DNA from: Clostridia bacterium
Lineage (GTDB): Bacteria; Bacillota; Clostridia; Oscillospirales; Acutalibacteraceae
NCBI GenBank assembly: GCA_017503785.1
Contig: JAFVSK010000018.1
Coordinates: 106,079 to 170,078, forward strand
Length of the DNA: 64,000 nt
Direction of reading: 5' to 3'
Below the pieces are notes generated by a model. It was given only the letters and a program-made list of their open reading frames with translations, searched no databases and was not told the origin of the DNA. A program made the translations under genes and the position numbers. Of this stretch, positions 9-57,661 are shown piece after piece; the stretch's first letter is position 1; the number at the start of each line of letters is the position of its first letter.

Positions 9-238
9 GAGGCACCCTCCGTAAGGAAGGTGCCTCAGTTATATTCGCCTTGCGGCGAGTGATATTGCTTCGCAGTGATATTATGCTACGCATAGTGATA
101 TTGTCCTTCGGACAGTTTATAGGGCGAATATAATATCACTGAAACCGCAAGGTTTCAATATAACTTTGCCGTTAGGCAAAATATAACTGTGAGACCTGCC
201 TCACAATATCACTTAATACATTTATCTTTGAGATAGGT
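9..238 (+). repeat. Multi-hairpin intergenic element, copy A (possible structured RNA or miniature mobile element)
   Basis: Hairpin GAGGCACCCTCC-GTAA-GGAAGGTGCCTC lies at 9-36. AGT[T/G]ATATT occurs at 37-45, 58-66, 74-82 and 94-102, each followed by a short GC-rich hairpin. AATAT[C/A]ACT occurs at 132-140, 157-165, 180-188 and 205-213, each preceded by a hairpin. Nearly identical by eye to 8602-8830. The left edge is close to the window start. Confidence 0.7.
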
Positions 239-40688: not shown

Positions 40689-42410
40689 TTATTCCTCTTT
40701 TATTGAATTGTACTTATCCAATGCACTGGTAATCTGACTCTGCAACGCCTCAATGTCTTCTTTCAGTGCCGGGATATTCACGGTTCCGGTTTTGGCATAA
40801 ACGTCATTCATCATAGCCGTAACATCGTCTTTTGAAATGTATTTAAAGGTAGTTTTCGGGTCGTTTGACAACAAATAGATTATCTGACTCCAAACACGAA
40901 TCTTTAGATCATTTTCTTTATCTTCCTTGTTGCTCACTTCATCTCGCAGGATCACCAAGGTGTTCCAAAGAGTTTGGTAGGCCTCACTCAACTTTTCGGT
41001 TTGTTTTCCTCTTCCATATTTATTGATTTGGCCTAATGCGGTAGAAATATCATCGTAGTGCTTTGCCATGGCAAGCGACTCATCGGAACTATCAAGAACC
41101 TCTTTAAACCATGTTGACGCCGCACTGTATCGATCACTCGGTACGTTCACATTGCTGTAGAAAAGAATATGCTCGCCGATTTCAAAGCAAACCTTTTGGT
41201 ATTTTGCAAGATCGGCCGTCTTCAGTTCCTCCAGAGGCTTTACGGTAGTGGTATACCCGTTTTTACCGGTTTTGTCGATACCTCGGCGCAGTTTTTCCAG
41301 CAAGCCGCTTTCGCTCGCGTCGTTTTCCAGTACGCCATCTTCAACCAAGCAGTCTAAAAGGCCGTCATAGCCGCTGCCACCCTCGTCATGGTCGCCGATA
41401 TAGGCCTCAGTGCGTGTGGGATCAATCAAAATCGCCTCTACATAATCATCCACGGTTTCAGCGGTATACCACGAAAACTCATAGTTATCCGCCTGAGCAG
41501 CCTGGGCCGAAAAATACCCAAACACCGACGTGGCAGCGAATACCAAGGTTAACGCCGCACTGGTGGCAAACAGCGACAACTTTTTCTTCTGCTGCTTAAT
41601 ATACTCGTCTTCAAAGTCCTTATAATGCTCCAGATCGTACATTAACTCCGCGCACGACTGATAGCGGTCGGCAGGGTTGTTTTGCGTACATTTTAAGATG
41701 ATCTTCTCCAAGCCGGTGGACAGCGCCGGATTGATCTCGGTGATCGGCCGGATCTCATACGGCGGCTGGCTCGGGTTCATGCCCGTCACCAAGTGGTAGA
41801 TCGTGGCACCCAAGCAATAAATATCGGTGCGGGCATCGGTTTGCCCCATGCCGCCGTATTGCTCCGGAGCCGCATAGCCACGCGTACCCAAGCAGGTGGT
41901 ATCCTCCACCTTCGAAGCCTTATGCTCGCGAGCGGTACCGAAGTCGATCAGCGAAATGGTGCCGTCAGGCTTGAGCATCACGTTAGCCGGCTTCATATCA
42001 CGGTAGATGATGGCCGGCTCGCGGGTGTGCAGATACCCCAGCACGTCGCACAGCTGCTTCGACCATTCAATAACGTCTTCCTGCGGCTGCGCGCCGAAAT
42101 CGCGCAGAGCCTTGTCCAGCGAGTTACCCTGAACGTAGTCCATAATAATAATGAACGAATCCGCAGTATCAATAACGTCAACGATACTGGGCAAATGCTT
42201 ATGACTCAGTTTTTTCAGAATATCGGTTTCGGCCACCAAGCCTTGCTTCACCGCTTCAAAATCCAAAACGCCGTCCTTACGCACTTCCTTAACGGCCCAT
42301 TGTTTATTCGCTCTTTCGTTCATGGCGAGGTACACAACGCTCATACCGCCCTGACCGACTTTATTTAATATTTTATATTTTCCGTCGACAAGCGAACCTA
42401 CTTCTAACAT
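40689..42410 (-). CDS. Hanks-type Ser/Thr protein kinase with TM helix and ~270-aa extracytoplasmic domain (not PASTA-like)
   Basis: GQGGMSVVY, WAVKEV, YRDMKPANVML, DFGTAR and GTRGYAAPEQ. TM LSLFATSAALTLVFAATSVFGYF. C-terminal domain unrecognised. Confidence 0.9.
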   Translation of the reverse strand: MLEVGSLVDGKYKILNKVGQGGMSVVYLAMNERANKQWAVKEVRKDGVLDFEAVKQGLVAETDILKKLSHKHLPSIVDVIDTADSFIIIMDYVQGNSLDKALRDFGAQPQEDVIEWSKQLCDVLGYLHTREPAIIYRDMKPANVMLKPDGTISLIDFGTAREHKASKVEDTTCLGTRGYAAPEQYGGMGQTDARTDIYCLGATIYHLVTGMNPSQPPYEIRPITEINPALSTGLEKIILKCTQNNPADRYQSCAELMYDLEHYKDFEDEYIKQQKKKLSLFATSAALTLVFAATSVFGYFSAQAAQADNYEFSWYTAETVDDYVEAILIDPTRTEAYIGDHDEGGSGYDGLLDCLVEDGVLENDASESGLLEKLRRGIDKTGKNGYTTTVKPLEELKTADLAKYQKVCFEIGEHILFYSNVNVPSDRYSAASTWFKEVLDSSDESLAMAKHYDDISTALGQINKYGRGKQTEKLSEAYQTLWNTLVILRDEVSNKEDKENDLKIRVWSQIIYLLSNDPKTTFKYISKDDVTAMMNDVYAKTGTVNIPALKEDIEALQSQITSALDKYNSIKEE

Positions 42411-43307: not shown

Positions 43308-45044
43308 TTATTTCTTGTACTCAAACTTCTCGTCGGCCAACAGGATCTTGTCGCCATCTTTCAGTTCAACTTCCTGACCGGCGCGCGCCTTCACACCGTT
43401 AACGAAGGTGCCGTTGGCAGCCTTATTGTCAACAATGTAGGTAACACCGTCACGAACCACAAAGCGAGCATGCACACGGCTGATATTCGTATTGCCGCCC
43501 ACGCAGTAATCAACACTGCTGCGCTCTCTGCCCACCGTGAACTCGGCCGAGCAGATCGGAATACGCTCGTTGTTGCTGGAACGCACCAACGCACCGCCGT
43601 TCACGTTCTGCGACAGAACGGTGGTTTCACCGGCGCTCTGCGACAAAACGGTGGTTTCGCCGGCGCTCTGCGACAGAACGGTGGTTTCACCGGCAGAGGG
43701 GGCTGCAGGCTTCGCAGGAGCAGCCACAGGCTTCACGGCAGCCACCGGAGCGGGAGCAGCCACAGGCTTCGCGGCAACCGGAGCCACGGGAGCAACCGGA
43801 GCAGCCACCGGAGCGGGCTGAGCCTTTTTCTTGTTCATCGAAACGATCAGAATGATAACAACAACGATCACAGCAATCGCCACAACCGCGATGATACCGA
43901 TCATCACGTACTGATTCATAGCAGATTTCTGCTCTTCCTTCGCCAGCGCGTCGATAGCCTCATCCAAAGCCTCGGCAGCATTGTCGATGGTAGCCTGCGA
44001 ATCGGCAGTCAAAGCAGCCTTCGCATCCTTCAGAGCAGCCTTCATCGCCTTATAGGACTCTTCGGTGTAATCCTGAGCGGCATAGCCCTCAGCCTTGGTG
44101 ATCAGGCTCGACAGCTCGCTGGTGTTCAGCGTAGCACCGGTGGTCGTCGTAGTAGTATCGGCGGTCGTCGTTTTGATGGGACCGGGGCCAGCGAACGAAA
44201 TGTTCAGCGCAGTCAGGTAGGTAATCAGCTCTTTACTACTAATAGCCATGAAACGGCTTCCGTCTCCTGCGGCGTTCACGCCCACCACGTTACCGTCTTT
44301 GTCTACCAGCGGGCCGCCGGAGTTGCCACCGGTGATCAGCGCGCTGTTCACTACGCAGTTAACATCTTTGTATTCATGAACTTCATAGTTGTCATCGTAT
44401 GCATCAAACTCTACGTCACCGACCTTGTTCACATTACCACTACTAATGGTAATATCGTCAATGTCGTAGGTGTTTTTAGAATCAATACTTACCAAATCCG
44501 AAGGATAACCGATAGCAAACACCTCGTCGGTCTGCTTCAATTCGTCGCTGTTGCGGATGGCCAGAGGGGTGCGAGCAATCTGCTGGCTCAGTGTCAGCAC
44601 GGCCAGGTCGAGCTCGGGGTTAGCGTTGGTGAGCTTCGCCTTCACGTAAGTACCACGATACAGCATTACGCGCAGCTCCAGCATATCCTTGATCTGAGCC
44701 GCCGTACGGTTGGTGCTGTTTTCGGCGTTGGTGAGCTTTGCCCAGTTAACATACCACTCATCCGGGAAACCGTTCGCCACGTGCTGGCAGGTTACCACGG
44801 TGGTGTCGTTCACCAGGAAGCCGGTGCCATAGTGAAGCGGCACTTCGGTAGCAGTTTCAGGGTCTTTAAACCACACCTGCACCTGTACAACGCCGTTCTT
44901 GGCCTCGGTGACAGCCTGGCCCACTTCGGCAGCATTGGCGCTGAACGCCATACCGAACACCAAGCACATCATCATGCTTACTGCGAGAATCAAGCTAACG
45001 AGCTTTGTTCTCTTTGCTTCGGGATTCTTTGTTTTGAAGAACAT
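43308..45044 (-). CDS. Fusion protein: signal peptide, trypsin-like (S1/HtrA-type) protease, helical stalk, TM helix, Pro/Ala linker, 3x GETTVLSQSA repeat, FHA domain
   Basis: Protease triad context: TCQHVANG, DLAVLTL, GNSGGPLVDKDGNVVGV. TM MIGIIAVVAIAVIVVVIILIV followed by KKK. FHA domain: FTVGRE...ISRVHARF...NGTFVNG. Confidence 0.85.
   Translation of the reverse strand: MFFKTKNPEAKRTKLVSLILAVSMMMCLVFGMAFSANAAEVGQAVTEAKNGVVQVQVWFKDPETATEVPLHYGTGFLVNDTTVVTCQHVANGFPDEWYVNWAKLTNAENSTNRTAAQIKDMLELRVMLYRGTYVKAKLTNANPELDLAVLTLSQQIARTPLAIRNSDELKQTDEVFAIGYPSDLVSIDSKNTYDIDDITISSGNVNKVGDVEFDAYDDNYEVHEYKDVNCVVNSALITGGNSGGPLVDKDGNVVGVNAAGDGSRFMAISSKELITYLTALNISFAGPGPIKTTTADTTTTTTGATLNTSELSSLITKAEGYAAQDYTEESYKAMKAALKDAKAALTADSQATIDNAAEALDEAIDALAKEEQKSAMNQYVMIGIIAVVAIAVIVVVIILIVSMNKKKAQPAPVAAPVAPVAPVAAKPVAAPAPVAAVKPVAAPAKPAAPSAGETTVLSQSAGETTVLSQSAGETTVLSQNVNGGALVRSSNNERIPICSAEFTVGRERSSVDYCVGGNTNISRVHARFVVRDGVTYIVDNKAANGTFVNGVKARAGQEVELKDGDKILLADEKFEYKK
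43608..43697. repeat. 3 x 30-nt tandem repeat encoding (SA)GETTVLSQ
   Basis: CTGCGACAGAACGGTGGTTTCACCGGCGCT repeated three times with 2-3 substitutions. Confidence 0.9.
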
Positions 45045-45165: not shown

Positions 45166-45394
45166 AAAAATGAATATATATTCCAAAAAAAGGTATAATA
45201 CACCTACTATTGCGGTTATTATATCACTCGGAACAGGGTTTGTCAATTATTCCCTGCCGGTTTTTGTCGAAAATATTAAGAATTTGTAAATTTTTGCCGT
45301 GTGAGATTTTATGCAGTTAGTATTATTCGCCGTTTGTGGTCAGCGCTGTGGTCGGAGAACTTCTCAATCTATAATCAAGAAAGGATGATTACTT

Positions 45395-46513
45395 ATGTCA
45401 AGGCGCGGGGATCATATTCATAAGCGAAAGGACGGACGTTGGGAGGGCCGCTATCGTATAGGGACCAACATGGACGGAACGGCTCATTATCGCTCAGTAT
45501 ATGCGCACACCTATGCTGACTGTAAAGCCAAACTGACCGAAGCAACCGCCCGGCGACACAGCGAACCGCCTTCGTCAGCAAAGCAACTGCGTTTTCGTGA
45601 AGCCATATATCAGTGGCTTTCTGTCAAGCAAATGCAACTAAAGAGCTCCACCAAGCTAAAATATCGTGACATGATTGAAAAACATATTTTACCGGAACTG
45701 GGAGAACTTCCCTTATCCACTCTTAATGCCGTTGTAATCAGCTCTTTTTTAGAGCGAAAGCTACATTGCGGGGGTGTCAAAAGCAGTACTCCCTTAGCAT
45801 CTTCCTATGTAAGAACCATGGCGATTCTCATCACTTCAGCACTGGAGTTTGCCGCCTCTCTCGGCTGGTGCGTCCCTCTGAAAATTCCACCGTGTCTGCC
45901 AAGCGTTCCTAAGAAAGAACCAACCGTATTAACAAAAATCGAAGAAGAAACTTTGACGGACTTTTTGTTGCAAGAGCATTCTCTAACCGTATTGGGAACT
46001 CTGCTGGCTCTACAAGCAGGCCTGCGCATCGGTGAGGTCTGTGCCCTGCGTTGGTGTGATATTGACCTTGAAAAACGCTTACTACACGTTCGGCATACGC
46101 TATCCCGAACCGTATCAGAAGAAACTTCTAAAACCGTTTTCATTTTAGATCGACCGAAATCACGTTCATCCCACCGTGACGTTCCGTTAACTGCAGCCTT
46201 GCTGCAAAAGCTACATGCAGCGCGCGAAATTCGCCTTTCCGATTACGTTATTTCTGAAACCTCATCGTTTGTTGGTACACGAACATTTGAATACCGCTAT
46301 AAAGCCCTGCTCAAAAGAGCAGGTGTTCGGCCAATTAATTTCCATGCGTTGCGACACACCTACGCTACCCGCTGTGCCGAAGCCGGAATGGATGCCAAGA
46401 TGCTAAGCATGCTGTTGGGGCACGCTTCCGCGACAACAACGTTAAATGTGTATGTACATCCCTCTATGGAAAGTGCATCACAGCAGGTAGAAGCTATTTA
46501 CCGTCTTGCCTGA
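45395..46513 (+). CDS. Tyrosine site-specific recombinase (phage-integrase family)
   Basis: 372 aa. N-terminal KRKDGRWEGRYRIG arm-type motif, GLRIGEVCALRW, HALRHTYATRCAEAG and LGHASATTTLNVYVH (R..H-x-x-R..H..Y). Confidence 0.9.
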   Translation: MSRRGDHIHKRKDGRWEGRYRIGTNMDGTAHYRSVYAHTYADCKAKLTEATARRHSEPPSSAKQLRFREAIYQWLSVKQMQLKSSTKLKYRDMIEKHILPELGELPLSTLNAVVISSFLERKLHCGGVKSSTPLASSYVRTMAILITSALEFAASLGWCVPLKIPPCLPSVPKKEPTVLTKIEEETLTDFLLQEHSLTVLGTLLALQAGLRIGEVCALRWCDIDLEKRLLHVRHTLSRTVSEETSKTVFILDRPKSRSSHRDVPLTAALLQKLHAAREIRLSDYVISETSSFVGTRTFEYRYKALLKRAGVRPINFHALRHTYATRCAEAGMDAKMLSMLLGHASATTTLNVYVHPSMESASQQVEAIYRLA

Positions 46514-46530
46514 ACGGGGTCAAAATAAGG

Positions 46531-46560
46531 GTCACAAAACGGCACAGATCCTTATATAAT
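46531..46560 (+). promoter_or_regulatory. Putative outward-facing promoter just inside IRR
   Basis: GTCACA, 18 nt, TATAAT (46555-46560). It points out of the segment through IRR. Confidence 0.4.
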
Positions 46561-46584
46561 GCAAGGCTCTGCGCTGTTCTTTAC

Positions 46585-46604
46585 AGAAGTATCAGTTCTA
46601 CGAA
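46585..46604. repeat. Inverted repeat, right arm (IRR)
   Basis: AGAAGTATCAGTTCTACGAA. Confidence 0.95.
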
Positions 46605-46616
46605 AGCAAGATGCGC

Positions 46617-47123
46617 TTACACCCCAAAAAAGCAAGCACATCTCCTAAACGGCTGCTCGCGCACGATCTGTATGAGCAGCAGCGTTGCCACGGCGCTAAG
46701 CCCCCAAAAACAAACAGCAATCCCCTCCGGCCACCATTGCAATAATTGCGTCATATCGTCGCTTGGCAGCGGCACTCCTCCGGCAAAGCATACCACCGAT
46801 ACTACCGAAAGCACAAGAGCCACCAGTGCCGTTATCTTAACCAACAGCGAAAGATACCATCCCCAAAACCACCGGCAGCTCAACAGACTGAGCGCAGCCG
46901 GAAACAGCACCCCTGCCAGAGAAATCACGATCCGCCCCTCTTGCGTAACAGCGGCAAGATCACACACCACGTACGGCAGCGGCAGCACGTGCACCTCCTT
47001 CACCGTGGCGCCTGTCAACAGCGCTGCCAGCGCGTGCCCGGTCTCGTGCAGTGCCGGATACAGCACCAACGCAACAGCCATTCCCAAGGCAGTGATTCCC
47101 ACCATTTTCCCTAACAGTTTCAC
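46617..47123 (-). CDS. Membrane protein with HExxH motif (DUF3267-like putative zincin)
   Basis: LYPALHETGHALAALLTG plus about 5 TM segments. A GTG start at 47123 after AAGGGG is preferred because the longer ORF starts inside the terminator hairpin. Confidence 0.6.
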   Translation of the reverse strand: MKLLGKMVGITALGMAVALVLYPALHETGHALAALLTGATVKEVHVLPLPYVVCDLAAVTQEGRIVISLAGVLFPAALSLLSCRWFWGWYLSLLVKITALVALVLSVVSVVCFAGGVPLPSDDMTQLLQWWPEGIAVCFWGLSAVATLLLIQIVREQPFRRCACFFGV

Positions 47124-47156
47124 AAGAACACCCCTTACGAGTGTTCCCGCAACACA

Positions 47157-47194
47157 ACAAAAAAACACCGTCCATCCGGACGGTGTTTTTTATT
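47157..47194. terminator. Bidirectional terminator; right copy of the 38/39-bp direct repeat
   Basis: ACAAAAAAACACCGTCCATCCGGACGGTGTTTTTTATT. Differs from 28924-28962 by one loop base and one T. Confidence 0.8.
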
Positions 47195-50466: not shown

Positions 50467-50667
50467 GGGAGACTTCTCTAAGGGAAGTCTCCCAGTTTTA
50501 TTCGCCAAAGGCGAGTTCTATTGCTGCGCAGTGATATTCGGCTAACGCCGAGTGGTATTCGCTTCGCGAGTTTTGGTGGCGAATAAAATAACACTGAAAC
50601 CGAAAGGTTTCAATAACACTATTGCCGTAAGGCAATAATATCACTCCGACAAAGTCGGAATATAACT
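50467..50667 (+). repeat. Multi-hairpin intergenic element, divergent copy C
   Basis: Same order of parts as copies A and B: a long first hairpin (GGGAGACTTC..GAAGTCTCCC); AGTTTTATT, AGTTCTATT, AGTGATATT and AGTGGTATT each followed by a hairpin; then AATAACACT x2, AATATCACT and AATATAACT each flanked by hairpins. Several stems have different sequence with pairing kept. Confidence 0.7.
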
Positions 50668-50713
50668 TGAAAGACTACCGGTTTTTATGTATAATAATTT
50701 TGAGGTGATAACA

Positions 50714-51064
50714 TTGGCTGATAGCATTTTAAGAGATAAAGCAAAAGAATTTGCAAAGACTATTGTTTTTCTCTGTCGTGATATGAAAGAAAATTGTAAG
50801 GAATCAGTTTTAATAAACCAATTACTTCGTTCTGCTACTTCAATCGGTGCGAATTTACACGAAGCACAATACGCACAAGGAACAAAGGATTTTATTTCTA
50901 AACTTGAAATAGCACAAAAAGAATGCTACGAAACTGAATATTGGCTTGAACTTCTATTTGAAACAAATTGCATGAATGAAGAAAATTATAAAGCATTACA
51001 AAACGATTGCGGTGCTATCCGCAGAATGTTAATTTCTTCTCTTAAAACAATAAAATCGAAATAG
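50714..51064 (+). CDS. Four-helix-bundle protein (23S rRNA intervening-sequence protein / Avd-like family)
   Basis: ..RDKAKEFAKTIVFLCRDM...LINQLLRSATSIGANLHEAQYAQGTKDFISKLEIAQKECYETEYWLELL is the recognisable family pattern. A TTG start at 50714 after GAGGTGA is preferred (the track ORF starts at 50687). Strongly A/T-rich relative to its surroundings. Confidence 0.75.
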   Translation: MADSILRDKAKEFAKTIVFLCRDMKENCKESVLINQLLRSATSIGANLHEAQYAQGTKDFISKLEIAQKECYETEYWLELLFETNCMNEENYKALQNDCGAIRRMLISSLKTIKSK

Positions 51065-51199
51065 GGGTTTGGGCTTACCTACAAACTCTTATGAAATAAA
51101 AAAACGCACCGGAAATATCGGTTTATCATTGGTTTCCTAAGTATGCTAAGGAAAAAAGATATATCGAAATATGGTTGCCTATAGAAAAAGCAAGATAAC

Positions 51200-51240
51200 A
51201 AAAAGTTCCAGACAGAGATTTTTCTGCCTGGAACTTTTTG
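51200..51240. terminator. Bidirectional terminator
   Basis: AAAAAGTTCCAGACAG-AGATTTTT-CTGCCTGGAACTTTTT. Confidence 0.75.
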
Positions 51241-53109
51241 TTATCCGATCTCTTTTCCGTCTTTCCAATAGCCGGCATTCACGCGGCCGTCGGCAAAGAT
51301 ATACCGCCCGGGGCCGTTACGCTCACCGTTTTCCCATTGTCCCTCAAAGCGGTCGCCGCTCTTCCAGTAATAGGTGCCACTGCCCTCGCGTTTACCGTTC
51401 ACCCACATGCCGTCGTACACGTCGCCGTCGGCATAGGTCATTTTCCCGCGGCCGTGGCGCCTACCGTTCTTCCAGTCGCCCGTGTACACCTCGCCATCCG
51501 TCCACGTGTACGTGCCATGTCCGCACTTTTGATCATTCACCCACGCGCCGCTATACACGTCGCCGTTCTTCCACGTGTACGTGCCGTGTCCGCTCACTTG
51601 ATCGTTCACCCACTCGCCGTCGTACGCGTCACCGCTTTTATAGGTCATTTTTCCGCGACCGTGACAGCGAAGTCTGCCGTGCTCGGCTTCGTGCAACGCT
51701 CCCTCGTACACACTGCCGGTGCTGTAGCGCACCCGCACGTGGTCCAGCTGCAGCACACCGTTTTGCCAGGTGCCCTCGTAGGTATCCTCACCCTCGTCCA
51801 CGTACACACCGCGGCCGTGGCGCTTACCGTCCTTCCATTCGCCCTCGTAGGTGCAATCGTCGCTCTCCTCCAGCCGTCCAAAGCCGTTGTACGCACCGTT
51901 CTTATAGCTGCCAATGTACGTTGTGCCATCGTCGTATTCCACGCGCGCATGCCCGCACGGCTCATCGTCGCGCCAATCACCGTCGTACACCACTTCACTC
52001 TCGTTACCGTATTGGTCTTTCGTTTTTTTCACGAGCTTGCCCTTGCCGTGGCGCTTATCACTTTTCCAGTCGCCCTCGTAGGTGCTGCTGTCGGCATAGG
52101 TCATCACGCCGCGACCGTGGCGCTCACCATCCTTCCAGTTGCCCTCGTACGCCGCACCGTCATTGTACACCAACCGGCCGAAGCCGTTGCGCTTGCCATT
52201 CTCTGCCATGCCGTCGTAGACAAAGCCGTCGCAAAATACCGCATGTATGTGACCGTGCGCTTTCCACTGCTTCCACTCGCCGTCCACAGAGGCGCCGTTA
52301 TCGTATGTCAGGCGGCCGCGGCCCTCGATCATGTCGTCGCACCAGTCGCCAACGTACGTGCGGTTGCTCCAGCGATACTCGCCGTGGCCGTGGCGCTTGC
52401 CGTCACGCCAGCTGCCGCGGTACACCGAGCCGTCCTTATACGTCATGGTGCCCACGCCGTGCGGCACGTCGCCCACGCGGTCGCCGCTATATTCGCCCGC
52501 CTCGGTAAACACCTGCTCGTCGGACTCCACCACCCCGAACACCTCGCCGATCTGGCGCAGCAGGGTTTCGGTGTGACCCGCCGCTTGATACTTCACGTAG
52601 GTGTGGCTTTGCGGGAACATTTCGGCCAGCACCGTCATTTTTTCCAGATCCACGCAGCCCTCGGCAAACGCTTCGCCCAGCATCTGTTGCGGGCTCTTTT
52701 GGGCCAGCTTCACGCAAAAATACGTTTTCGGCTCGGCGCCCTCCACCGGCTTGCCGTGTTCGTCGCACCCGCGGGTAAACTGCACCTCGCGGTAAATGGC
52801 ACTGCTGCGCAGCATGCTTTCACTCAAATAAAAAATTACGCCGCGGCAGTTGGGATGCTGGATCCACGCCTGCGCATCGTCGTCCCACGCTTCGCCGGCC
52901 GTGAAATGCCGATCGTAGAAAAACCGCACGTTTTGATCGTACAGATCGGCCAAGTCGGCGTACACCTGCTTGTAATCCACGCGCGCATAGCTGATGAACA
53001 CAAAGGTCTTTTTTTCGCGGTCAAACTCGGGCAGGGGCACCTTGTCGCACACATCCAGACTGCTTGCCGCCGCCAGTTGTTTTTTGTATTCTTCGCTGTT
53101 AAACGCCAT
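51241..53109 (-). CDS. TIR-domain protein with a long MORN-repeat array
   Basis: N-terminal [38 protein letters not shown]...[20 protein letters not shown] (TIR_2-like). The C-terminal ~400 aa hold about 16-17 repeats of the type Y.G.W.dGkrHG.G. The ATG at 53109 follows GAGGAGG. Confidence 0.8.
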
Positions 53110-53140
53110 GCTTCGCGCCTCCTCGCAGGGTACTGTATTC

Positions 53141-53169
53141 ATTATAAACGTCCGCTACAGGCTTGTCAA
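53141..53169 (-). promoter_or_regulatory. Consensus sigma-70/sigma-A promoter of the TIR-MORN gene
   Basis: On the minus strand: TTGACA (53169-53164), exactly 17 nt, TATAAT (53146-53141), about 30 nt upstream of the start codon. Confidence 0.7.
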
Positions 53170-55270: not shown

Positions 55271-57661
55271 ATGCGTTGTTTGCAAATTTTCGTATCCAGC
55301 ACCTTCAGTGATATGCACCGCGAGCGGGATCTTCTTCATCAGGTCGCGGGGCTTATCAACCGCGATATCGTTCACACCGGCTACCAAATCGTGCTGCGCG
55401 ACCTGCGCTACGGCATCAACACCGCCGACCTGCAAAGCGAACGCGACGTTGAGCGCACCATTCTGTCGGAATGCTTCGACGTTATTGACGACTGCGCGCT
55501 GTTCGTGCTGCTGCTCGGCAACCGCTACGGCACCGTCTTTCACGATATGGACACACCGCAGCGCTACCTGCCGCACGTAGATCTCGAGGGCAAAAGCGTA
55601 ACGCACCTCGAGGTGGACTACGGCCGCGTTCGCATCGACAAGCAGCGGCTACTGGTGTTTGAGCGTGCGCTTGAGGGCGCCGTCACCGGGCTGTCGCTGC
55701 CCTACCGCGAAACCGAAGAGGGCGCCGCCAAGGTGCGCTTGCTGCGCGATGCTCTGCTGCGCGAGGGCTACACCATCGACCGCTACACCGCCACCGCCGA
55801 GGGCGGCGCGCTGTGCATCGACGAGCACTATTTCATCAAGCACACGCAAGGGCTTTTGGAGCAACGCGTGCTGGAATACATTGCCGCGCAGCCTGCCACG
55901 GCTGCCGCCGCCACCGAGGCCTTACACCCCGCGCTGCAGCAGGCGCTGGAGCAAAAGCTCGCCGTCTATCCCGCGCCGTACCGCGCGTGCGCCGAAGCGC
56001 TGCTCCGCTTGCGTATGCAAGACCTTTTGCACCAAGCCGACTACGACGCCGTGCGCCGCTTCGGCCGCGGCGGCAAAGCATTGTTAGATTATCGCTGCGC
56101 GCTCGTTGCCTCACAGCCCGACGATATTCTCGAGCTACTGCAAGCCGTGTGCGCCTGTCTGGCCGAGGTAACCGCCCCCACGTCCGACGTATTTCGTGCC
56201 CTGCAGCTGCTGGCGTGCGCACAAACCACGGCGCTGGCCCAAACGGGCGGTATCAGCCTGCACGAGCTTACCTGCTTGTTGGAGAACACCCCCCTACCTC
56301 ATGGGCAGGATTACGATGCATGGCAAGCATGGCGCAGCGAAGCGGGCGGCATGCAGCACGCACAAACGCCGCTGCAGCGCGCCTTCTCCTGCCTGCTCGA
56401 CTCCCTGCTCACCCACACCGAGGCCGGCTACGCCTTTGTGGACGAAGCGGTGGCCTCGCTGCTGGCCGCCACCGCTCCTGCCGCCGTGCGCGAACGGCTG
56501 CAGCACTACGTAGCCGCGGTGTTTTGGTATCTGCCGAAACCCGCCAAAGCGTGGCTGTCGCTGCTGCGCGAGGGCCGCTATGCTCTGTGCGTGGCCTGCG
56601 TGGAGCAGCTGCATTACGACGAACGCTTCACCAACGCCCTGTGCACCTATCTTGAAGACGAACATGTCCCCGTGGGCGAGCTGCTTTCGCTGCTGGAGGA
56701 GCTACTCAAAAACGCCATCGAGCTGCCTGCTGCCCCCACCACGCTGTATTATCTGCTCACGGTGGCCGCCGCGCTGGTGGAGTTCGCCTCCTACGATGAC
56801 GACATCGACGGCGACGAGCTGTTTGCCAACCGCATGGTACCGCTGTATCAAACGGTGCATCAGCGGTTTTACGAAACGCACAAGGATGCGCTCACCCTCG
56901 AAAAGCGGTATTTTCTCCATCAGGTGTACAACCGCTTTGAGCTCGAGCTCGATGCTACTCCGCCGCCGCTGCTCACACCGCCGCAGCAGGATGAGGCCGA
57001 AGCCCTGTATGGGGCGATCCTCCAATTCCTCTACCCCACCCTGCCGCCCGAGCTGGAGGGGGACTCCCTGTTAGAAACGCTGGGCGCACTGCTTCAGCAG
57101 AATGCTCCGCCCACCTTCGCATTCCCCGAGGAATTTGAAGAGGCACTCAACCTGCTGCACTCGTACCTGCCGCAGGAAGCCGCGCTCACCGCCGTGTTTC
57201 AGTTGTATATGCTCAACTGCGGTTCACAGCCGCTGGCGATGCTGGAAAGCCTGGCCGTTGCGGTGCTGAAGGGGGCGTTCAGCACGGCGTTTGCGCAAAC
57301 GCTGGCAGAGAACTGCCTATACATTCATCCCACCGCCTACGACCTCGAAACCACCATTGCCGCAACCGTGCTGTTTCTGGCCATTCCCGCCCTTGCTAAG
57401 AAAGAACTTGCGCATTGCTTGGCAGCGCTGCACACCGTGTACGCGCTGGTGCGCACCGAAACGAAGCTGCTTCGCTGCGATTGGTTCCGCTGGAGCACCC
57501 TCGTTTCGTGCGATCTCATCGACAAGCTGCGCGACACCGACGATGCCGTGGTTGCCGAGATCGCCTTGGTGCAAGACGACTTTTTCGGCGCCGACTACGA
57601 CGAGTTGGCCGCCATCGACGCAAATCTCGTCAAAGCCGCTCGGCAGCACCACCCACAGTAA
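55271..57661 (+). CDS. DUF4062-type N-terminal domain fused to a ~650-aa alpha-helical region (no P-loop seen)
   Basis: MRCLQIFVSSTFSDMHRERDLLHQVAGLI...ECFDVIDDCALFVLLLGNRYGTVF matches the DUF4062 pattern (FISStf.Dl..eR...i....d.fvlllG.rYG). The remainder is Leu/Ala-rich and helical. AAAGGAGG RBS. Confidence 0.65.
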   Translation: MRCLQIFVSSTFSDMHRERDLLHQVAGLINRDIVHTGYQIVLRDLRYGINTADLQSERDVERTILSECFDVIDDCALFVLLLGNRYGTVFHDMDTPQRYLPHVDLEGKSVTHLEVDYGRVRIDKQRLLVFERALEGAVTGLSLPYRETEEGAAKVRLLRDALLREGYTIDRYTATAEGGALCIDEHYFIKHTQGLLEQRVLEYIAAQPATAAAATEALHPALQQALEQKLAVYPAPYRACAEALLRLRMQDLLHQADYDAVRRFGRGGKALLDYRCALVASQPDDILELLQAVCACLAEVTAPTSDVFRALQLLACAQTTALAQTGGISLHELTCLLENTPLPHGQDYDAWQAWRSEAGGMQHAQTPLQRAFSCLLDSLLTHTEAGYAFVDEAVASLLAATAPAAVRERLQHYVAAVFWYLPKPAKAWLSLLREGRYALCVACVEQLHYDERFTNALCTYLEDEHVPVGELLSLLEELLKNAIELPAAPTTLYYLLTVAAALVEFASYDDDIDGDELFANRMVPLYQTVHQRFYETHKDALTLEKRYFLHQVYNRFELELDATPPPLLTPPQQDEAEALYGAILQFLYPTLPPELEGDSLLETLGALLQQNAPPTFAFPEEFEEALNLLHSYLPQEAALTAVFQLYMLNCGSQPLAMLESLAVAVLKGAFSTAFAQTLAENCLYIHPTAYDLETTIAATVLFLAIPALAKKELAHCLAALHTVYALVRTETKLLRCDWFRWSTLVSCDLIDKLRDTDDAVVAEIALVQDDFFGADYDELAAIDANLVKAARQHHPQ

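Follow-up and report, generated by a model that had tools for sequence, protein, structure and literature searches.

The 64,000-nt stretch analysed here (the window; positions 106,079 to 170,078 of contig JAFVSK010000018.1, assembly GCA_017503785.1) comes from a Clostridia bacterium of the Acutalibacteraceae family. On its minus strand it carries a gene for a protein that joins an N-terminal TIR domain to a long C-terminal array of MORN repeats (Table 1). An earlier reading made from the letters alone (the sequence-only reading) had presented this TIR-MORN protein as an orphan and had proposed that it could act as a single-gene sensor-effector.

The TIR-MORN gene and its product

The perfect consensus promoter TTGACA-N17-TATAAT reported on the minus strand by the sequence-only reading is present 31 nt 5' of ATG 53109. 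This motif occurs twice in the 64-kb window, compared to 0.00 occurrences expected from 100 shuffles. The upstream ATG at 53142, where the listed open reading frame (ORF) starts, falls within the -10 box, and the true start codon is ATG 53109. Since the gene possesses its own perfect promoter, Shine-Dalgarno sequence and terminator hairpin, it is monocistronic and forms a self-contained transcription unit.

The N-terminal TIR domain noted by the sequence-only reading has a match to Pfam TIR_2 slightly under the cut-off (E = 8e-6) and is upheld by structure prediction and by Foldseek. An AlphaFold2 (AF2) model of amino acids (aa) 1-224 was built on a 28-sequence alignment and reached a mean predicted local distance difference test score (pLDDT) of 89 and a predicted TM-score (pTM) of 0.83. 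The modelled head has a flavodoxin-like order, with five parallel strands alternating with helices: beta-A (36-40), alpha-A (43-58), beta-B (~61-64), alpha-B (73-83), beta-C (88-95), alpha-C (103-112), beta-D (129-134), alpha-D (140-164), beta-E (171-173) and alpha-E (179-191). Because the model shows one complete TIR domain, the ~90-aa linker claimed earlier has to be reinterpreted as the C-terminal half of the TIR, with aa 119-192 forming beta-D, alpha-D, beta-E and alpha-E of the same domain. Searches of Pfam and NCBIfam revealed no STAND (NACHT or NB-ARC) NTPase domain between the TIR and MORN parts, which are separated by a 14-aa linker only.

The best PDB matches of the TIR model are the TIR domains of the plant nucleotide-binding leucine-rich-repeat receptors (NLRs) RUN1, RPP1 and RPS4 (Foldseek, TM-scores of 0.63-0.67, E-values down to 7.5e-5), followed by the SPARTA TIR-APAZ protein, TLR1/6, SARM1 and BtTir. 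The Foldseek probability is 1.00 for RUN1, RPP1, RPS4, TLR1/6, SARM1 and the SPARTA TIRs. RUN1, RPP1 and RPS4 are NAD+-cleaving plant TIRs, and the matched RUN1 structure has NAD bound.

A check for the catalytic glutamate in a TIR alignment, suggested along with the sequence-only reading, identified E108 in helix alpha-C as the candidate. This residue is invariant in the 28 aligned relatives, together with S40, Y41, D45, V49, F63, D66, G72, W75, C88, G90, F93, S96, S102 and F131, and is likewise invariant in a separate alignment of 20 relatives. In profile-to-PDB alignments, E108 aligns with the glutamates of ThsB (9uv0, 'REEI') and of TLR1/TLR6 ('HYEL'). Its spacing from S102 (S102-x5-E108) equals that of the TIR motif SxWCxxE. 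Judged from the alignments and the model, the TIR head is probably of the enzymatic type and would cleave NAD+ via E108.

For the C-terminal array, a hidden Markov model (HMM) made from the protein's own repeats counted 18 units over aa 207-619, in good agreement with the 'about 17' repeats noted before, and Pfam MORN matched 13 stretches (E = 2.2e-79). Residues 250-293 form a poorly modelled, degenerate stretch. In the full-length model (pLDDT 86.5) the array is an unbroken beta-hairpin sheet, whose fold matches MORN1 and the junctophilins (Foldseek E-value of 1.9e-22 to MORN1). No hydrophobic segment was detected in the protein (maximum Kyte-Doolittle score of 0.75), and no signal peptide, transmembrane segment or secretion-system neighbour was found for it. 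With no hydrophobic segment in its sequence, the TIR-MORN protein is predicted to be soluble and cytoplasmic.

Table 1. Coordinates in the window of the TIR-MORN gene, its expression signals and the encoded domains.
Feature	Position	Strand	Details
TIR-MORN coding sequence	51241..53109	-	622 aa plus stop codon; identical gene called on 10 metagenome contigs
-35 hexamer TTGACA	53164..53169	-	direct reading; part of the perfect consensus match
-10 hexamer TATAAT	53141..53146	-	17-nt spacer; overlaps the spurious ATG 53142; ends 31 nt ahead of the true ATG
Shine-Dalgarno sequence GAGGAGG	53118..53124	-	direct reading; 8 nt ahead of ATG 53109
Intrinsic-terminator-like hairpin	51196..51243	-	20-bp stem, T-rich tail; overlaps the stop codon; downstream part contributed by the low-GC insertion
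Family-conserved N-terminal helix, aa 5-14	53068..53097	-	high pLDDT in AF2; motif kept in the 28-sequence alignment; precedes the TIR core
Complete TIR domain, aa 35-192	52534..53007	-	beta-A to alpha-E; AF2, Foldseek, Pfam TIR_2
Codon of E108, candidate catalytic glutamate	52786..52788	-	helix alpha-C; S102-x5-E108
True inter-domain linker, aa 193-206	52492..52533	-	~14 aa; pLDDT <50 at 195-203 in both models
MORN array, aa 207-619	51253..52491	-	18 units of ~23 aa: 14 full, 4 degenerate
Tandem duplication, the only one at the DNA level in the gene	51485..51619	.	69 bp x 2, 84% identity; MORN units at ~aa 497-541

Relatives in gut Clostridia and the RyR-linked clade

A k-mer-indexed search with the N-terminal 210 aa returned 2 matches. 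The orphan status that it suggested was rejected as a sensitivity artefact after exhaustive HMMER and full-length searches. The exhaustive HMMER search with an N-terminal profile yielded 6820 cluster representatives at E <= 1e-3 and 77 at E <= 1e-30, with most of the top matches covering ~200 aa of the profile. The full-length search recovered ~30 TIR_2+MORN proteins among the best 120 matches, as well as MORN arrays joined to kinase, caspase and trypsin heads. At least 388 loci in the GTDB species representatives code for relatives, and the best 80 of these belong nearly all to metagenome-assembled genomes (MAGs) of gut Clostridia (Acutalibacteraceae, Oscillospiraceae, Eubacteriales and Christensenellaceae). 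Among them, MORN arrays are encoded at nearly all of the loci L006-L041, and a regular-expression count gives 6 to 42 repeats. The description of the protein as an orphan holds in that it lacks an adjacent partner gene; as for the architecture, the combination of this TIR head with a MORN array is common in gut Oscillospirales. No relatives were found in IMG/VR, GenBank phages or plasmids, and a phage origin was ruled out on this ground. We found no literature on bacterial TIR-MORN proteins.

In other Clostridia, the same TIR head also occurs on BspA-type leucine-rich repeats (LRR_5; L042, L044, L049 and L052), on a HAD phosphatase plus PfkB kinase (L043, L048 and L051) and on an FHA domain (L019). 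Swapping of heads and tails is, we infer, typical of conflict proteins. In some genomes the TIR-MORN gene is accompanied by TIR paralogues in tandem (two successive TIR-MORN genes at L040:4396-10480; further cases at L031:8383-9075 and L025:4512-7431), and a single MAG (JAZPYF01) has two unlinked copies, L009 and L041. The locus is not syntenic across species, the neighbours being different in almost every genome, and a large serine recombinase lies near 5 of the 33 related MORN-array loci. Both the serine recombinases and the tandem TIR paralogues suggest an accessory and mobile character.

The flanking ORFs of 33 related loci and the window (34 loci) were clustered, and a neighbour-joining tree was made from the TIR heads. 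In 12 of the 33 relatives, the TIR-MORN gene adjoins a gene for a protein of 585-735 aa (L006, L010, L012, L014, L017, L018, L024, L026, L028, L033, L034 and L038; e.g., L014:657-6445 and L017:10001-15794). Three arrangements were observed: the partner is co-directional with a 12-16 nt gap, lies upstream with a 4-nt overlap, or is convergent. Persistence of the pairing in all three argues for a functional linkage of the two genes. The partner has about three N-terminal transmembrane segments, a GxGxxG Rossmann region with a weak TrkA_N match, and a C-terminal RyR domain (PDB profile match at 2e-9; hhalign probability of 90%). It is joined in eight loci by a 92-aa RyR-domain protein (Pfam RyR, 1.8e-37), which keeps H43, W46 and D85 at the spacing of H75, W78 and D117 in RyDEP, and a metallophosphoesterase is present in six loci. 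On the tree, the RyR-linked loci form one clade (A), amounting to 12 of its ~15 loci with enough flanking sequence. Clade B, with 11 loci, is solo, as are the window protein and L027, which branch deeply.

According to a 2026 preprint, the cyclic ADP-ribose (cADPR) isomers 2'cADPR and 3'cADPR are bound with nanomolar affinity or cleaved by RyR/R12 domains, and RyDEP is a phage anti-defence enzyme with a RyR domain (PMC13232231). Because the clade-A operons hold RyR domains, which bind cADPR isomers, it can be argued that the TIRs of this family turn over NAD+. From its gene content, the clade-A operon may represent an undescribed TIR signalling system. Given that the partner occurs in about a third of the relatives, the family may be signal-generating rather than purely self-contained.

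Small RyR proteins with 55-72% identity to the 92-aa partner of clade A are common in gut and rumen metagenomes (L095-L174). Among 49 long loci encoding such proteins, four have a TIR neighbour and one has a membrane/RyR neighbour. A general link between small RyR proteins and TIRs was therefore rejected, only 4 of the 49 loci containing a family TIR, and the RyR linkage appears specific to clade A. Around the solo relatives no conserved partner was found, the commonest neighbouring family being another TIR. Analysis of homologue neighbourhoods, which the sequence-only reading had recommended, gave a divided answer: the solo relatives have mixed housekeeping neighbours with few defence genes, and about a third of the relatives have the RyR-domain membrane partner.

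Strain variation and surroundings of the gene

Within the species, the two halves of the protein vary to a different degree. Allele L087 is identical to the window protein in the TIR half (aa 1-205) and has 22 substitutions plus one extra 23-aa repeat in the MORN half; allele L089 has 2 changes in the TIR half and 55 in the MORN half, and allele L091 has 3 and 27, respectively. Between strains, the array diverges by up to 13% of its residues and by one entire repeat. The extra unit of L087 is inserted after aa 520, inside the tandem-duplicated stretch. Only 3 of the 64 variable array positions fall on the six consensus positions Y1, G3, W5, G12, G14 and G21, and G3, W5 and G12 are invariant between strains. 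The dN/dS ratio (Nei-Gojobori) is 0-0.2 for the TIR half versus 0.37-0.45 for the MORN half. These sequence comparisons support an array that would act like a variable recognition surface between strains and a TIR half under strong constraint.

Read 5' to 3', the window has the following order around the gene: an integrase gene (45395-46513), the gene for a 183-aa ORF, an AraC gene, alanine racemase (alr), a radical SAM gene, a 23S_rRNA_IVP gene and TIR-MORN, and then nrdR, a MATE gene, the gene for a 796-aa DUF4062 protein, TMEM164 and GGDEF-EAL genes. The named alanine racemases closest to the one encoded here are 54-57% identical and come from Oscillospiraceae and Anaeromassilibacillus, in keeping with an uncultured, Oscillospirales-like host. 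The sequence-only reading stated that no known partner gene is adjacent, and the search agrees with it: no SIR2, SLOG, Macro or other known Thoeris effector was identified between ~30.4 kb and 64 kb of the window, and tblastn found no homologue of the 585-735-aa or the 92-aa clade-A partner in the entire 64 kb. A PADLOC search of the window neighbours and the clade-A partners gave nothing specific. The kinase at 40689-42410 has strong PADLOC matches to PD-T4-6, which were set aside as most likely reflecting generic kinase-domain similarity.

The region between the radical-SAM and TIR-MORN genes contains a low-GC insertion of ~767 nt (50467-51233; 34% GC versus 57% for the window), which carries the gene for a 23S_rRNA_IVP four-helix-bundle protein (50687-51064, plus strand) under its own near-consensus TTGAAA-17-TATAAT promoter at 50667-50695. 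L087 lacks the insertion, and there a single bidirectional terminator serves both the radical-SAM and the TIR-MORN gene; in the window the insertion has split it. A 77-nt part of it is repeated at window positions 114-188 with 85% identity, and many metagenome contigs break at the insertion. The insertion looks like a small mobile element. A second strain-variable spot lies ~4 kb away from the TIR-MORN gene, beside the AraC gene. In the window strain it holds a tyrosine integrase and the 183-aa ORF, which has no Pfam match at E <= 0.0001 (45395-47168), and in L087 the same site (132-2216) holds an HTH/S24 repressor, a NUDIX hydrolase and a HAD hydrolase.

On the other side, 2.1 kb from the TIR-MORN gene, the 796-aa protein (55271-57661, plus strand) has an N-terminal DUF4062 domain (E = 1.8e-12). 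The remaining ~680 aa have no Pfam match at E <= 0.001, and the protein has no PADLOC match. As DUF4062 is a TIR-like NADase family, two TIR-type genes flank the nrdR-MATE pair. The other perfect TTGACA-N17-TATAAT motif of the window is located at 45218-45246 (minus strand), ~170 nt upstream of a trypsin-FHA gene (43308-45044). This gene heads a minus-strand cluster that extends from 45044 down to 30462 and encodes PP2C, a Ser/Thr kinase, two small unknown ORFs, a 2320-aa Ig-repeat protein and zinc-ribbon/WG-repeat proteins.

Interpretation and significance

We propose, with a confidence that falls a little short of even, that the TIR-MORN protein is a cytoplasmic sensor-effector whose MORN array gates clustering of the TIR heads, and hence NAD+ cleavage, most likely upon the appearance of an invader. 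TIR enzymes need self-association to build their active site. Repeat modules gate the TIR domains of plant TIR-type NLRs (LRR) and of SARM1 (ARM), and MORN sheets use their length to bind partner proteins and their ends to dimerise (structures 6t4r/6t6q and 6jle). Because the gene is an autonomous unit whose strong promoter is of the constitutive type, the protein would already be present before it is required, in an auto-inhibited state with the array holding the TIR heads apart or inactive. The array would then associate with itself or with a multimeric ligand, most likely an invader (phage) protein and less likely a membrane or envelope cue. Once bound, the ligand would cluster the TIR heads and induce NAD+ cleavage via E108, and the outcome would be NAD+ depletion and/or a cADPR-type product, followed by growth arrest. 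The immune role is putative, and the protein may act either through NAD+ depletion or through signalling. The single-gene sensor-effector put forward by the sequence-only reading is in this respect partly sustained: E108, the monocistronic gene, the lack of an adjacent partner, the variable array and the tested precedent of Swarozyc (below) speak for it, whereas the PADLOC result, the housekeeping flanks and the RyR partner of some relatives give it no support.

Several observations weigh against a sensor-effector acting in defence. PADLOC, the check first advised, gave no match for the TIR-MORN protein at E <= 1, including none to the ThsB model, and does not back a defence call. The flanking genes nrdR, MATE, alr and radical SAM are housekeeping genes, and all contigs of the species that reach the site carry the gene between nrdR and the radical-SAM gene, as is seen for core genes. 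The solo relatives are flanked by mixed housekeeping genes with sparse, generic PADLOC matches, and the family is absent from phage and plasmid collections. The window protein itself sits on a long branch and deviates at two nearly invariant family positions (H43R and W64F), and its TIR_2 score of 26.8 bits is slightly below the 28-bit cut-off, relatives with the same head reaching 34-47 bits. Finally, dS in the array is 3-9 times the value of the TIR half. Because synonymous sites diverge too and dN/dS is below 1, the divergence of the array points to recombination or gene conversion together with relaxed constraint; positive selection on the array was considered and is not demonstrated by ratios of 0.37-0.45 with raised dS.

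A broader interpretation, about which we are doubtful, is that the TIR-MORN family constitutes a new TIR signalling system, the solo copy in the window being either a reduced version that kills through NAD+ depletion alone or a sensor feeding an unlinked receptor. In clade A, the MORN-armed TIR would make a cADPR-type nucleotide to be read by the membrane Rossmann (TrkA_N/RCK-like) and RyR/R12 protein, and the signal would be tuned by the small RyR protein and the metallophosphoesterase. Such an axis, from TIR through cADPR to RyR, can be likened to the animal axis of cADPR and the ryanodine receptor, in which MORN and RyR likewise meet, as in junctophilin.

Clade A is also the basis of an alternative for the window protein that we judge unlikely, a Thoeris-like signal generator in which the MORN array senses infection and the TIR makes a cADPR isomer acting in trans on an unlinked receptor, e.g., a membrane/Rossmann/RyR protein. 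The recurrent pairing with such a gene in three arrangements (12 of ~15 clade-A loci), the RyR domain at the partner C-terminus, the RyDEP-type H, W and D kept by the 92-aa protein of eight clade-A loci and the metallophosphoesterase of six loci are all in line with it. However, the window protein falls outside clade A, its 64 kb hold no homologue of either partner, the 11 loci of clade B are solo too, and most RyR genes sit elsewhere, family TIRs being present at only 4 of the 49 long small-RyR loci. According to the text of a survey of Thoeris, moreover, known systems keep their TIR and effector genes adjacent (doi 10.64898/2025.12.03.692087).

The housekeeping context, with the gene fixed at one locus across the contigs of the species, fits a non-immune physiology, to which we also assign a low probability. 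The protein would then be a constitutive regulator or enzyme of NAD+/nucleotide metabolism, envelope or sporulation, with the MORN array as a localisation device or scaffold subject to ordinary repeat instability. A consensus promoter suggests steady high expression, distant relatives join the TIR head to the metabolic-looking HAD phosphatase and PfkB sugar/nucleoside kinase, dN/dS below 1 with raised dS in the array is what gene conversion would give, and defence genes are not enriched around the solo relatives. This explanation is at odds with the absence of synteny between species, a repeat number ranging from 6 to more than 40, the swapping of heads and tails with LRR, FHA, kinase, caspase and trypsin modules, the recombinases near five loci and the linkage of clade A to cADPR-binding RyR domains; in addition, we know of no housekeeping pathway that uses a TIR enzyme. 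Far less probable is that the TIR serves as a non-catalytic adaptor or a host-directed mimic comparable to TcpB, TcpC and TirS, with the MORN array binding host or bacterial membranes. The organism is gut-dwelling, the head shows weak sequence and structure matches to the TIRs of TLR1, TLR6 and MyD88 and to TcpB/BtpA, and MORN was first proposed as a membrane-binding motif, although this has been disputed. On the other hand, E108 is invariant, the top structural matches are enzymatic plant TIRs, and a signal peptide, transmembrane segment and secretion-system neighbour are all absent; to our knowledge, commensal Clostridia have no route for delivering such a protein into host cells.

Returning to the proposed sensor-effector, the window protein would, by analogy, work most like ThsB of Thoeris or like single-gene TIR-type sensors such as Swarozyc. 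Like ThsB, it is a cytoplasmic bacterial TIR whose catalytic-position glutamate shares an alignment column with that of 9uv0, and it is presumed to be triggered by a phage protein; its clade-A relatives adjoin a putative signal-binding effector gene. ThsB is essentially TIR-only, whereas the window protein has a 413-aa MORN array, and Thoeris has an adjacent effector gene (SLOG, Macro etc.), whereas none lies near the TIR-MORN gene, which also lacks a PADLOC match to ThsB. The text of the Thoeris survey reports 29 predicted types, 11 of them validated, and leaves stand-alone TIRs out; a term search of the survey and one of its results sections, outside the all-effector figure and tables, showed no RyR-domain effector (doi 10.64898/2025.12.03.692087). 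Swarozyc is a single protein with an N-terminal DUF4062/NIR TIR-like NADase and a C-terminal auxiliary domain, which has a tested role in defence and is auto-inhibited until the phage portal, a structural protein, assembles it (doi 10.64898/2026.05.01.722283). The two are alike in their one-gene design, in which a TIR-type head at the N-terminus is followed by a large C-terminal module for recognition, and a DUF4062 gene is present nearby in the window. The head of the window protein belongs to another family, canonical TIR_2-like rather than DUF4062, and its tail is a MORN hairpin array. In contrast to the experimentally tested Swarozyc, the TIR-MORN protein is known from sequence and model.

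The plant TIR-type NLRs (RUN1, RPP1 and RPS4) and SARM1 are the best structural matches and follow the same logic of a repeat domain combined with a TIR; the long alpha-D region of the plant TIRs is also present in the window TIR. They differ in possessing an NB-ARC/STAND NTPase or SAM oligomerisation module, absent from the window protein, and share 13-19% sequence identity with it. Eukaryotic MORN proteins (MORN1, junctophilins, RSP1/RSP10 and MORN4) share the repeat fold, MORN1 being 33-37% identical over ~200 aa, but they lack enzymatic TIR heads, whereas the window protein has 18 units in one unbroken array. RyDEP and bacterial RyR (R12) proteins are comparable through the clade-A relatives alone, whose small RyR protein and membrane-partner RyR C-terminus have the ligand and catalytic residues H-x2-W...D. 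RyDEP is a phage-encoded anti-defence enzyme, whereas the clade-A RyR genes are chromosomal partners of TIRs; neither of these RyR proteins has a homologue in the window.

TIR enzymes are common to bacterial, plant and animal immunity, and the systems differ in how the TIR is switched on. In the papers that could be searched, we found no description of a MORN array as a TIR switch. Through the clade-A operon, RyR-domain proteins would acquire a function in cADPR signalling on the host side, which bears on the long-standing question of cADPR action on ryanodine receptors; this axis is the more interesting one, yet it is not encoded in the window. If the window gene has a housekeeping function, bacteria would for the first time be seen to use a TIR enzyme in routine physiology. 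Gut Clostridia that are difficult to culture, and whose defence biology has hardly been put to the test, carry the TIR-MORN family in abundance. If the array is a ligand sensor, it would add a new repeat class to bacterial pattern recognition, and the variation between strains would be the sign of an ongoing arms race in the guts of humans and animals.

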